DNA of 18,463 bases, taken from IMG/VR virus record IMGVR_UViG_2703718769_000006; one strand, written 5' to 3'. The notes under the pieces are model-generated. The model had not been told where the DNA came from and made no database searches. It saw nothing but the letters and a program-made list of their open reading frames with translations. This document shows positions 10,242-17,873 of this stretch, in pieces. Numbering within the stretch: the first letter of the stretch is position 1; each line of letters starts with the position of its first letter. The position numbers and the translations under genes were made by a program. This stretch comes from a virus. Lineage: Duplodnaviria > Heunggongvirae > Uroviricota > Caudoviricetes.

Positions 10242-10949
10242 TTACCAGCTATGTGATGACCAGAACACTCGTCCTATGATTTTTACGTTTTTGTAGAATT
10301 CTTCTCTGTTCATTACTTCATCAGGATACTCTTCGCGGTTTATCGATCTGATAATTACCGATGTTGGTGTGGCTATTAGCGTTTTTACCCTTAACAAATC
10401 AGCTTGGCAAATTGCATATGTTTTACCATCCCTGATGCTCGTATCTTGCGTGTTTACCCCCACCACATCACCATCATGGAGTGTTGGCTCCATACTTTGC
10501 CCAACAACCCTGACCAACTTTGCCGCTTTTTCTGGAACTCCCATTTTTTTCAGGTAATAGCGCCTAAAAACTAGAGAGAATTCTGCGGACTCCTCCAATG
10601 CACAACTTCCTCCGCCAGCTGAAAGTGAAATATTTAGAAGGGGGAGCGCAACAAATTCGTCATTATCATTTTGATGATCATCCCAGGCGATAGCTTTTAA
10701 AGATGATTCCCGAGCATTAGATGGCTCTTCTGCGCTCTGTGGTCTCATTGACCCTATACCAGAGCTTAGCCACTCAGGGCGAACTCTTAACGCGTTGGCT
10801 AATTCGACCATTTTACGTGATCCGGTTGTTTTACCAGATGACATCTTTTGTATGGCTGGTTGTGATACCCCCACCATGTCTGCAAGTTGTGCTTGTGACA
10901 ACCCGGCTGAACTCATGGCGGCATTTAGTCTTTCTGCGAATGTTTTCAT
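10242..10949 (-). CDS. cI: CI-type prophage repressor (HTH plus S24 LexA-like autocleavage domain)
   Basis: 235-aa product with N-terminal HTH (LSQAQLADMVGVSQPAIQKM), an Ala-Gly cleavage region (SAGGG) and Ser/Lys dyad motifs (GQSMEP … KTLI). Divergent from cro with operators between them. Confidence 0.9.
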   Translation of the reverse strand: MKTFAERLNAAMSSAGLSQAQLADMVGVSQPAIQKMSSGKTTGSRKMVELANALRVRPEWLSSGIGSMRPQSAEEPSNARESSLKAIAWDDHQNDNDEFVALPLLNISLSAGGGSCALEESAEFSLVFRRYYLKKMGVPEKAAKLVRVVGQSMEPTLHDGDVVGVNTQDTSIRDGKTYAICQADLLRVKTLIATPTSVIIRSINREEYPDEVMNREEFYKNVKIIGRVFWSSHSW

Positions 10950-16156: not shown

Positions 16157-16525
16157 TTACGCAGCTTTACCCAGCGTAAAATCAAAGTGGATGTCGTCAT
16201 ACGGAAAAGATGTTCCATTTTCTCCTTTTTCCAGGAGGCCGTTGCTAATCAGTGCGGTTACATCCGTGTGTACGGCTTTTACGTCACGCCCGACCAGAGC
16301 GGCAATCTCACGGATTGACAGTTCTCCGGCACCAGTCATCGCCATGAGTATGTCCATGCGCTTAGGGGTAAGCACTTTATGCATCATTTGCCAGTCTGGG
16401 AATGAAACGATGCTTTCGTTCTTTGACGTCATTCCTTCGGCAACCGCTTTAAAGGCAGACAACACATCTGCCGTGAAAGCATCCATTGATTCAATACGTA
16501 TTGTAACTGTTTTCATATCAGGCAC
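16157..16525 (-). CDS. Predicted HTH DNA-binding protein (122 aa), second gene of a two-gene operon
   Basis: Segment MDILMAMTGAGELSIREIAALVGRDVKAVHTDVTALISNGLLEK resembles a winged HTH. Its start overlaps the upstream ORF stop by 8 nt. Confidence 0.65.
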   Translation of the reverse strand: MPDMKTVTIRIESMDAFTADVLSAFKAVAEGMTSKNESIVSFPDWQMMHKVLTPKRMDILMAMTGAGELSIREIAALVGRDVKAVHTDVTALISNGLLEKGENGTSFPYDDIHFDFTLGKAA

Positions 16526-16805
16526 CTCTGCGAATGGATTCTACATCATGGAGGAAGTCAGCAATGAGTTGCTCGATGGAAACAAAGTGGGTACTGATTT
16601 CCTGAGCACCAATGTGTTTGTGGTCGCCTTTACCTCTTTCGTTGTCGTAGCGCATGACGCAAACACCATCAACAACGTAAGCCATGCTGTATTTGAAGTT
16701 ATGGCGGCTACCAAGAACGGCTGGAGCCACCTCCCAGATTTTAATCCTTATGTATTCGGATTCCCCAAGATGGCGAATGAACTCTTTATACAGTTTGGAT
16801 GGCAT
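16518..16805 (-). CDS. Small protein (95 aa), first gene of the operon; toxin-like partner candidate
   Basis: ATG at 16805 with GGAG 5 nt upstream; a sigma70-like promoter (TTGACA-17-TATCCT on the minus strand) lies immediately upstream. No catalytic motif recognised. Confidence 0.6.
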   Translation of the reverse strand: MPSKLYKEFIRHLGESEYIRIKIWEVAPAVLGSRHNFKYSMAYVVDGVCVMRYDNERGKGDHKHIGAQEISTHFVSIEQLIADFLHDVESIRRGA

Positions 16806-16823
16806 AAAAACTCCGTGTATTTA

Positions 16824-16893
16824 TGTTGTTAAGGATAACAACAGTGCATAGCGTTGTCAATTAATACAACATCAATGCTGAGTTGACGACAAC
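16824..16893. promoter_or_regulatory. Divergent promoter region with palindromic operators
   Basis: Two GTTGT-N8-ACAAC dyads: 16825-16842 (overlapping the -10 TATCCT of the minus promoter) and 16853-16870 (overlapping its -35 TTGACA, plus 16855-16860). A GTTG-ACGA-CAAC dyad (16882-16893) overlaps the -35 of a plus-strand promoter (TTGACG 16883-16888, TATATT 16907-16912). Confidence 0.6.
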
Positions 16894-16969
16894 ACTTATC
16901 CGGGATTATATTCTTCGCACGGTCGAGTTGGCCGTCGGGATTGGAACCCCGGATAGAGACCGCGACAAA

Positions 16970-16995
16970 CACACGCCGCGAGCGTGTTTTTTATT
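16970..16995 (+). terminator. Rho-independent terminator inside the leader upstream of the antirepressor gene
   Basis: ACACGC-CGCGA-GCGTGT followed by TTTTTTATT on the plus strand, about 75 nt downstream of the predicted plus-strand start site and 160 nt upstream of the ATG at 17154. Confidence 0.55.
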
Positions 16996-17153
16996 GTCGT
17001 ATGCACGCGCACATCTGAATTATGGTGGGGCGCATGGGGGAGCTGAAAAGCTCGCCGGTCGGTTTCCCGGTAGTTCCAACCCTGTGCGTCTCACCACCCG
17101 ATGATTGGAACCTTACGGTGGTGATAGTTTAGAAACCACTAGAGGGCGTCATT

Positions 17154-17819
17154 ATGACAACTCAAATCTCTGTTGAAACCATCTCCCCGATTACCCATAA
17201 CCAGATTCCTGTTATTACCACCGAGCTTTTGGCACAACTTTATGGCACCGAAACTAATAACATCAAAGTGAACTATACACGCAATGCCGAGCGTTTTGTT
17301 TGTGGGAAACACTACTTCAAATTGGAAGGGGCTGGATTGCGGGAATTTAAGAATAAGGTTACTCAAAGTAACTTAGTTGCACCGCGTACAAAGCACCTCA
17401 TCCTTTGGACAGAACGCGGGGCAGCCCGTCACGCAAAAATGCTCGAAACTGATCAGGCATGGGAAGTGTTCGAAAAACTGGAAGACTGCTATTTCAGCCA
17501 GGGAAAAACAACACAAACCGAACAGCAGCCGCAGATTCAGCCGCAATTCACAGCAGAAGACATCATCCTACTCTGCTACGTTCAACTCTGGATGGAAAAA
17601 GCACAACAACTCAGTAAGCAGCTATACCCCGTCATGAGAGAACTGAACTCTGATTACTACGGGAAACTGTTTGATCTGGCCTACGAGACTCGTCATATAA
17701 CCAACCGGACTCGCGACACATTGCTCCGCGAAGCAGCAAAACTTGATCCCGCCAACTATATGGTGCATAGGGCCAGAAGCATGCTGGCGCAACTACGGGC
17801 AAGACAATTTGAATTCTGA
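17154..17819 (+). CDS. Phage antirepressor-like protein (ORF6N/Bro-N-type N-terminal domain)
   Basis: N-terminal region …IPVITTELLAQLYGTETNNIKVNYTRNAERFVCGKHYFKLEGAGLREFKN…LILWTERGAARHAKMLETDQAWEVFEKLED is the characteristic ORF6N antirepressor domain pattern. SD AGAGGG 7 nt upstream. Confidence 0.8.
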   Translation: MTTQISVETISPITHNQIPVITTELLAQLYGTETNNIKVNYTRNAERFVCGKHYFKLEGAGLREFKNKVTQSNLVAPRTKHLILWTERGAARHAKMLETDQAWEVFEKLEDCYFSQGKTTQTEQQPQIQPQFTAEDIILLCYVQLWMEKAQQLSKQLYPVMRELNSDYYGKLFDLAYETRHITNRTRDTLLREAAKLDPANYMVHRARSMLAQLRARQFEF

Positions 17820-17873
17820 AACTAAAGGAGCTTCGGCTCCTTTTTTGTTGGGAAAATCCAATGAGAGGGAATA

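Follow-up and report, generated by a model that had tools for sequence, protein, structure and literature searches.

The c4 antisense RNA of phages P1 and P7, together with its a1/b1 and a2/b2 sites, was reportedly described by Citron and Schuster in 1990. In the immI region of these phages a promoter, the sites a1 and b1, the C4 RNA, the sites a2 and b2 and a ribosome site follow one another on one strand (GenBank NC_005856). The C4 RNA of phage P1 is 77 nt long, a2 lies 4 nt past it and b2 overlaps the Shine-Dalgarno (SD) sequence of icd, which is followed by ant (GenBank); by our reading of the sequence, the C4 junction is the partner of the a sites (TTGACAG), and the hairpin loop that of the b sites (GTTAGTG). 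A separate literature concerns IsrK of the Salmonella prophage Gifsy-1, where a promoter, IsrK with its terminator, a downstream structured RNA (orf45, STnc1160) and the antirepressor gene anrP are arranged in this order, and where anrP translation is off by default and is raised 139-fold by IsrK supplied in trans (PMC4825925). This activation is lost when IsrK carries the a1 mutation G28A or G31A, and a stable processed RNA, STnc1160, is found downstream of IsrK (PMC4825925), both RNAs being expressed in lysogens under all conditions tested (PMC7067206). A 2025 review still treats IsrK and c4 as unrelated RNAs. Here we analysed a phage DNA of 18,463 nucleotides (IMG/VR record IMGVR_UViG_2703718769_000006, Caudoviricetes; this whole stretch is hereafter called the window) and conclude that positions 16883-17153, directly upstream of an antirepressor gene (ant), very probably constitute an RNA control module of the P1 c4 type in its Gifsy-1 form (isrK-STnc1160/orf45-anrP), working by the mechanism set out below.

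Results

Searching the whole 18.5-kb window against all Rfam families, we found that only isrK and C4 reach their gathering scores, in tandem and both on the plus strand, on which all features of the module described below are located. The isrK family (RF01394) matches over its full-length model (1-77) at 16919-16992 with 54.9 bits (gathering score 50), behind a σ70 promoter at 16883..16912 (-35 TTGACG at 16883-88, 18-nt spacer, -10 TATATT at 16907-12) that agrees with the consensus at 10 of 12 positions and has its predicted +1 at A16919. Because the match opens at this predicted +1 and closes in an intrinsic terminator, the corresponding RNA of about 75 nt (16919..16995) is an IsrK homologue, and it has the features of this family, namely its own promoter, two 5' hairpins, a Rho-independent terminator and a gene for an AnrP-type antirepressor downstream. 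An earlier note, made from the letters of the window alone, had proposed the promoter, an RNA of about 75 nt or attenuated leader ending at the terminator, and an ant start codon some 160 nt further on; all three hold, with the ATG at 17154 lying 159 nt past the terminator and the small RNA also providing the 5' portion of a read-through leader, as it does in Gifsy-1 (PMC4825925). The -35 and -10 elements are conserved in all related loci, as TTGAC…TATATT/TATAGT in every related leader including the annotated P1c4 promoter of phage P1 and the region upstream of isrK in Gifsy-1, where the isrK promoter is functional and drives anrP (PMC4825925). Upstream of the -35 the loci are unrelated in sequence. 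On the promoter itself an operator check found no counterpart of the P1 Oc4 operator and no recognisable repressor site, and the spacer is conserved across lambdoid loci.

Folding of the IsrK-type RNA places hairpin 1 at 16920-16934 and hairpin 2 at 16936-16951, followed by the single-stranded site b1 and by the terminator (16971..16993, found by folding and by a terminator scan). The terminator stem-loop at 16971-16987 has six pairs, four of them G-C, and a loop of 5, is followed by TTTTTTATT, has a hairpin energy of -7.1 kcal/mol and is the counterpart of the 3' hairpin in the Rfam isrK model. It is bracketed by an outer helix (CGACAA at 16963-68 with UUGUCG at 16995-17000), with which the energy reaches -12.1 kcal/mol; by eye, this outer helix varies on both sides in other leaders, e.g. 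CGATATG/CATATCG in L073, and it is able to form only in read-through transcripts. Rfam holds the a1/b1 part of the RNA as a family of its own, c4-a1b1 (RF03163), which derives from Weinberg et al. 2010 and consists of two hairpins with a1 in the second; that study also cites an earlier proposal that a1/b1 compete with a2/b2 for C4. The c4-a1b1 model also matches phage P1, and in five related loci its match sits inside the isrK match (overlaps are named for L086, L091, L096, L101, L122 and L123), so that isrK can be taken as c4-a1b1 plus a terminator. A further complementarity concerns the promoter spacer, whose untranscribed stretch TATCCGGG (16897-16904) matches the 3' strand of hairpin 2, CCCGGATA (16949-16956), with runs of 8-12 nt in many loci and covariation in phage P1 (TTCAGGCT/AGCCTGAA). 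This pairing fits a 'third stem' that Weinberg et al. 2010 left unexplained, and it is possible only in transcripts entering from upstream.

The C4 antisense RNA (RF01695, 71 bits against a gathering score of 45) starts 25 nt 3' of the IsrK RNA and occupies 17018..17101, where a long stem P1 encloses hairpins P2 and P3 and a single-stranded junction. Its minimum free energy (MFE) of -44.9 kcal/mol (z = -5.02) is matched by none of 200 shuffles, and the MFE fold has the shape of the phage P1 C4, with the recognition element a' in the junction, here 8 nt long, and b' in the P3 loop in both phages. Across 40 leaders the C4 helices are 98.5-99.9% paired, with compensatory changes in 10 of 17 pairs of stem P1 and in 5 of 5 pairs of P2. 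The MAFFT alignment of full leaders behind these counts was used for the C4 helices only and not for pair counts at the a sites; in it a2 is off by one column in one class, a class with a one-base insertion is misaligned, and IsrK hairpin 1 and the terminator seem poorly paired, an effect of a structure string that comes from the atypical row of the window. RNase P processing of the P1/P7 C4 RNA, which releases about 77 nt in phage P1, is cited in PMC2190699. By analogy, C4 is probably cut out of the read-through transcript by RNase P here as well, and since the 5' context (AAUUAU, then GGUGGGGCG) is identical to the annotated 5' end of phage P1 C4, a mature RNA of 75 nt at 17024-17098 is predicted by alignment to it. 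Two other readings were discarded: that of the tRNA-like stem of C4 as a tRNA gene, for which a tRNA/tmRNA scan of the window found nothing, and an sR58 snoRNA match at 17097-17118, which at 18 bits against 55 is a chance hit.

Three copies of one heptamer connect these RNAs. The element a', GUUCCAA at 17073..17079, was located by motif search and folding within the C4 junction (AGUUCCAA, 17072-79), and it is complementary both to a1, UUGGAAC in the 8-nt loop of IsrK hairpin 2 (16941..16947), and to a2, the same heptamer in the ant leader 7 nt past the predicted C4 3' end (17105..17111, 7 bp), each duplex having -8.5 kcal/mol. The positions of a1 and a2 match those annotated in phage P1, and so does the role of a1. 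The second element, b', is the loop UCGGUUUC of C4 hairpin P3 (17059..17066). It forms 7 bp including one G·U with b1, GAGACCG at 16956..16962 (-8.8 kcal/mol), which is single-stranded after hairpin 2 and lies 8 nt before the terminator stem, and 6 bp with b2, GAAACC at 17132..17137 (-7.3 kcal/mol), whose 3' end is 4 nt before the ant SD (GAGGG, 17142..17146, by sequence reading); in other leaders b2 abuts or overlaps the SD, e.g. GUACGGAG and GAAAAAGGA. All duplex energies come from short probes restricted to loop and junction, which replaced an unconstrained duplex folding of the whole C4 against IsrK or the leader that had returned long, uninformative duplexes. The b' loop (GGUUUC, 17059-17066) can also pair with the a sites (GGAACC; 16943-16948 and 17107-17112) at -6.2 and -6.5 kcal/mol, so that the two recognition elements are not fully orthogonal in this class.

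The earlier note had listed the three TTGGAAC copies and suspected a function. The two direct copies are where it placed them, while the inverted one lies at 17073-17079 rather than at 17074-17080, and the repeats do appear functional, at the RNA level, as the copies covary as a triplet. As the C4 RNA around the inverted copy had been overlooked, however, the motif was taken for a plain repeated site instead of an antisense/target triplet. Counting alone would not have revealed this: TTGGAAC occurs three times in the whole window against 3.56 expected, and between 15000 and 18463 there are 6 promoter-like sites against 5.1 and 4 terminator-like sites against 3.8 expected from shuffles. Such motif, promoter and terminator counts were rejected as evidence because they do not exceed expectation, and the case therefore rests on homology and covariation.

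For this comparison, relatives of the Ant protein were used to retrieve 80 viral and 40 genomic loci. In about 70 of the viral loci the isrK-C4 pair stands equally far 5' of ant, and Rfam confirms the pair in Salmonella, Citrobacter, Trabulsiella, Leminorella, Izhakiella, Mixta, Limnobaculum, Erwinia, E. coli and Shigella. The covariation set comprised 41 distinct leaders, including those of phage P1, APSE-3 and Gifsy-1, with 12 different a' and 17 different b' elements in 23 combinations. The offsets of the sites are fixed (a1 about +26, b1 about +42; a2 about -48 and b2 mostly -16 to -24 from the ATG), and in each class a1 and a2 fit the junction of the same leader, just as b1 and b2 fit its loop. 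The longest Watson-Crick run averages 6.5-7.0 nt for cognate against 3.7-4.0 nt for non-cognate pairs, and for each of the four site pairs all 5000 permutations fall short of what is observed, in a set whose related sequences are not independent. When 7-mers were extracted by their flanking anchors, and not by complementarity, a1:a' and a':a2 were paired in 100% of 91 cells compared with 13-43% in slid controls, and 6 of 7 a pairs were compensatory, with both sides changed. Flank anchoring was chosen after a fold-based extraction of a1 had failed for the UUGGCGU class, in which the site extends hairpin 2. In one class an extra base is inserted in each of the three a sites (UUAGGAAC / GUUCCUAA / UUAGGAAC). 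Moreover, a and b sites reassort, UUGGAAC for instance occurring with five different b loops, and judging from these leaders, twelve and seventeen specificity classes that reassort are a pattern that shared ancestry alone cannot explain. A hybrid leader, L022 (IMG/VR contig 2630968933_000007, leader 960-1203), has matching a1, a' and a2 and a b1 that matches b' (UCAACC vs UUGGUUGAU), while its b2 is of the GAAACC class and pairs with b' over 5 nt only; it looks like a recombinant caught between specificities.

The comparison also connects the two literatures. The LT2 Gifsy-1 record reproduces the coordinates of Hershko-Shalev et al. 2016 (AUGs 107/119, G28, G31, C159, C162, G173, C175, C18 and the 45-aa orf45), and it was used in place of the Salmonella locus L092, which was rejected as Gifsy-1 because its numbering misfits that paper whereas the LT2 record fits exactly. 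In this numbering a1 is UUGGCGU at 26-32 and a' is ACGCCAA at 158-164; the Gifsy-1 C4 is of class ACGCCAA/UCGGUGAU (a'/b'). The compensatory pairs of that paper, G28-C162 and G31-C159, fall within a1 and a' and thus are two a1:a' base pairs, and the orf45/STnc1160 region is a C4 RNA.

Several retrieved loci show further arrangements. In L091 (Mixta mediterraneensis) two complete modules, each of isrK/c4-a1b1 plus C4, lie 1 kb apart (951-1151 and 1955-2156). In twelve loci (L085, L088, L093, L095, L097, L100, L103, L110-L112, L116 and L121; Serratia, Pectobacterium, Brenneria, Arsenophonus, Accumulibacter and others) sRNA-Xcc1 (RF02221, 87-nt model) stands in the place of C4, about 40-130 nt 5' of ORF6N-type Ant homologues, and Rfam reported no isrK 5' of these sRNA-Xcc1-type Ant homologues; this arrangement may be a sister system. 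In L092 (Salmonella enterica strain s1), a sok antitoxin RNA of the hok/sok family (1870-2020, 104.8 bits) follows directly 3' of the Ant homologue.

The regulated gene, ant (17154..17819), codes for an antirepressor of 221 aa with Pfam ORF6N and P22_AR_C domains, which belongs to PHROG 377 ('anti-repressor Ant', E = 7.9e-79) and is 65% identical to Gifsy-1 AnrP across 144 aa. Its SD lies 7 nt 5' of the ATG, the gap between C4 and the ATG is 52 nt only, and the list of open reading frames (ORFs) contains no icd-like ORF there. An intrinsic terminator 3' of ant (17824..17843; an 8-pair stem, then TTTGTT) closes the module on its 3' side. The window represents the early region of a lambdoid prophage, with integrase, YqaJ/RecT recombination genes, a CI-type repressor gene (10242-10949, minus strand), replication genes and NinB, and the RNA module is placed between the replication genes and ninB, in a prophage type that is found as Shiga toxin (Stx)-converting phages. 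The closest phage record, Escherichia phage phiSTEC1589-Stx1c, is 100% identical over 16800-17200; its leader is without annotation and its ant is named 'antirepressor protein'. That phage has rha between ant and ninB (L002, 4021-4975), and in the window ninB follows directly after ant (17820-17873), which makes the window a different mosaic.

On the other side of the promoter, a gene pair on the minus strand (16157-16805, Pfam) encodes a TumE-family toxin (95 aa) and an HVO_A0114 winged helix-turn-helix (HTH) protein (122 aa), probably a toxin-antitoxin pair inserted beside the RNA module. Two 19-nt palindromes, GTTGT-N9-ACAAC, lie 28 bp apart at 16825-16871 and overlap the promoter of this pair, of which they are probably the own operators. 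Other phages share homology with the RNA module from the -35 hexamer onwards, and in only 1 of 243 phage records does it extend to the toxin-antitoxin side; the pair is outside the RNA module. A PADLOC scan of Ant and the toxin-antitoxin proteins gave weak matches to generic HTH/CARF-associated or candidate families only, which were not used.

Discussion

At this locus the analysis shows an isrK-type RNA and a C4 RNA in tandem before an antirepressor gene, the folds of both, and sites in the small RNA, in C4 and in the ant leader that are complementary and covary. The mechanism that best accommodates this organisation would start from a single promoter (+1 near 16919) with two products. Most transcripts would end at the first terminator and yield an IsrK-like RNA of about 75 nt that presents a1 in a hairpin loop and b1 just 3' of it, while read-through transcripts would hold the C4 RNA and the ant mRNA. 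C4 would be excised, by RNase P if as in phage P1, and its a' and b' would pair with a2 and b2; as b2 ends 4 nt before the ant SD, this pairing should exclude ribosomes and keep Ant off in the lysogen. The a1/b1 sites of IsrK would mimic a2/b2 and bind the same C4 surfaces, so that a high level of IsrK relative to C4 should free ant translation, as IsrK in trans does for Gifsy-1 anrP. Ant would then inactivate a repressor.

Several observations weigh against this scheme. The isrK score is barely over its threshold and the IsrK RNA alone is no stabler than shuffles (z = -0.55), while c4-a1b1 stays below threshold in the window (23.5 bits vs 46.7 at 16906-16955; E = 6.7e-4 in a 351-nt search), the latter because IsrK hairpin 1 is atypical here. 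With only 6 bp, b2 does not overlap the SD itself, unlike in several relatives. Phage P1 has icd between c4 and ant as well as a C1 operator on the promoter; here icd is absent and no such operator is recognisable. In Gifsy-1, basal expression rises from 4 to 93 and 218 when the reporter carries the a1 mutation G28A or G31A in cis (PMC4825925), where a pure decoy predicts a decrease, which suggests that the upstream sites probably also act in cis. Finally, for this phage processing, the translational block, titration and the repressor that Ant would inactivate are inferred from the sequence.

The behaviour of these cis mutants brings to mind an additional layer, compatible with the c4-type scheme and borrowed by analogy from satellite phage P4, in which C4 might also bind a1/b1 on the nascent RNA and raise termination at the IsrK terminator, so that attenuation would be combined with translation control and free IsrK would sequester C4. 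In P4 the CI RNA causes premature termination through an upstream seqA and a downstream seqC, and the Gifsy-1 authors noted the analogy, calling IsrK a structural homologue of SeqA (PMC4825925). The basal values of Gifsy-1 are consistent with such a layer (a1 mutants as above, a' mutants 484 and 926, double mutants 224 and 327), as are the 8-fold rise of a transcriptional fusion upon IsrK in trans and the position of b1 close to the terminator stem. However, folding of the leader revealed no alternative antiterminator structure that C4 binding could resolve, constitutive STnc1160 in Gifsy-1 did not relieve the toxicity of IsrK, which was even more pronounced, and the argument is a re-reading of published data. 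We therefore regard this layer as possible, with the balance leaning somewhat against it. A still more tentative view, somewhat doubtful in our judgement, would join IsrK, C4 and the ant leader into one three-site, specificity-coded RNA circuit, in which C4 acts twice (a P4-like attenuation via a1/b1 and a P1-like block via a2/b2), IsrK is a sponge, orf45 is C4 and not a coupling upstream ORF (uORF), and prophages of shared specificity communicate in trans.

The model published for Gifsy-1, taken as written, has no C4 and no a2/b2. According to it the read-through transcript is inactive because the middle of IsrK pairs with the 3' part of the orf45 uORF, IsrK in trans opens the ribosome site of the uORF, and ant is translated by coupling, with no antisense repressor at a2/b2. 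The locus is homologous to isrK-orf45-anrP, genetics and toeprinting in Gifsy-1 support an involvement of the uORF (PMC4825925), and a pair of AUGs at 17022 and 17034, 12 nt from each other, is conserved. The positional counterpart of orf45 in the window is a 36-codon ORF over C4 (17022..17132, by ORF comparison), which stops 22 nt before the ant ATG, whereas the orf45 stop overlaps the anrP AUG (AUGA) in Gifsy-1. Across the 41 leaders the ORF has 8-76 aa and a stop at -107 to +97 relative to the ant ATG, a variability with which coupling cannot be general; the ORF is probably not a conserved coding feature, and the same AUG recurs in all leaders because it lies in the C4 stem P1 and the predicted cleavage site. 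Furthermore, the sequence of this 'ORF' is an Rfam C4 RNA with strong structural covariation, and the model leaves the conserved, covarying a2/b2 beside the ant SD unexplained. We thus consider it unlikely for this locus, and the c4-type module remains the reading on which we rely.

The earlier note had instead envisaged a leader with plain termination or attenuation, TTGGAAC being a protein-binding or unspecified site, together with promoter repression by the 122-aa HTH protein or CI and a P22 sar/ant-like control. The promoter and terminator are real, the divergent promoters stand back to back 22 bp apart, and the isrK promoter spacer contains GACAACACT (16888-96), which looks like a half-site of the GTTGT/ACAAC palindromes. 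Nevertheless, the motif copies covary as pairing partners, one of them inside a structured RNA; the HTH gene belongs with a TumE toxin gene to a pair that is absent left of the -35 from nearly all homologous loci; GACAACA occurs in isrK promoters with wholly different upstream neighbours; and no minus-strand promoter-like site was found between 16860 and 18402, a range that includes the ant start. Operator repression from the divergent module is thus unsupported, and this version as a whole is improbable, even though its idea of layered control may be right in spirit, with RNA-RNA interactions as the layers. Still further behind, and hardly credible, is a functional small protein encoded by the ORF at 16883-17104 (73 aa) or at 17022-17132 (36 aa) with incidental RNA structures, for although open frames exist and a SPA-tagged orf45 product is detectable in Gifsy-1 (PMC4825925), neither has a Pfam match, the 73-aa frame opens within the -35 hexamer, ahead of the point where transcription begins, and spans promoter, terminator and two structured RNAs, one-base indels separate homologues in the matching span, ORF lengths are not conserved and conservation tracks base pairs rather than codons, in agreement with the earlier view that the longer ORF is not coding.

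The module occurs in 243 phage records, mostly of Stx-converting phages (Stx1 and Stx2), and close copies of the leader were found in 669 of 5,426 complete E. coli genomes (about 12%), with up to four per genome. Among the 15 RefSeq E. coli matches listed, none has an annotated feature under the match. In EDL933, isrK (twice) and C4 have already been annotated on the basis of Rfam, in which both families are curated; the locus is one more copy, hitherto without annotation, of an RNA control module that was already known. A single point adds more than annotation: the IsrK/orf45 system and the a1b1/C4/a2b2 system of c4 are explicitly equated, the validated IsrK pairs being a1:a' pairs, which links the P1 c4 and Salmonella IsrK literatures. 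The gain is one of annotation and reinterpretation and not a new principle. Antirepressors can induce a prophage without repressor cleavage, and induction of an Stx phage means toxin production, which makes the module a concrete RNA switch candidate for Ant expression in Stx phages. As a and b sites reassort and the leader is present in about 12% of E. coli genomes, prophages of the same specificity could repress or release each other's antirepressors in trans. If true, this would amount to an SOS-independent, RNA-level network of immunity and cross-induction among Stx and other lambdoid prophages.

Compared with the known systems, sar of P22 is only a loose analogy. Like the module here it is a small RNA that acts on an antirepressor mRNA, blocking translation at the ribosome site (PMC12197685), and to this extent the comparison drawn in the earlier note stands; sar, however, originates from the opposite strand, runs across the ant start and has full complementarity to it, whereas the RNA in the window is co-directional, structured and directed at two short, dispersed sites of 6-7 nt, as in phage P1 c4. 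In satellite phage P4 a processed leader small RNA (CI RNA) pairs with sites on both sides of itself on its own transcript (by the description in PMC4825925), although the outcome is premature termination of replication genes and not antirepressor control. The APSE phages of Hamiltonella have the same tandem of isrK and C4 with annotated a'/b' (LR794150; PMC7313666), and their sites (a = UUCGCAU, b = CUAAACAGG) fit the covariation table, but the downstream gene is of another class, BRO-N, the host belongs to another clade and the identity of about 70% is limited to 160 nt.

A close homologous system is isrK-orf45(STnc1160)-anrP of Gifsy-1, in which promoter, IsrK with terminator, structured RNA and antirepressor gene are all homologous to those of the window and equally spaced. 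The two differ in specificity (a = UUGGCGU and b = AUCACCG in Gifsy-1; UUGGAAC and GAAACC in the window), in hairpin 1 of IsrK, which is atypical in the window, and in setting, the Gifsy-1 module lying just 3' of the antiterminator gene antQ and that of the window before ninB. Hfq binding and trans-activation by IsrK are known only for Gifsy-1 (PMC4825925). Another close system is immI of phages P1 and P7, from which the window differs by the missing icd (b2 lies directly before the ant SD), by one promoter instead of two, by the lack of an annotated or recognisable C1 operator, by an Ant of the ORF6N/P22_AR_C type in place of Ant1/2 and by belonging to a lambdoid rather than a plasmid prophage. 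The order of all elements on one strand and their spacing are nevertheless the same, and in P1/P7 as in the window it is an antirepressor that is regulated, with specificity coming from short variable sites, the basis of P1/P7 heteroimmunity.

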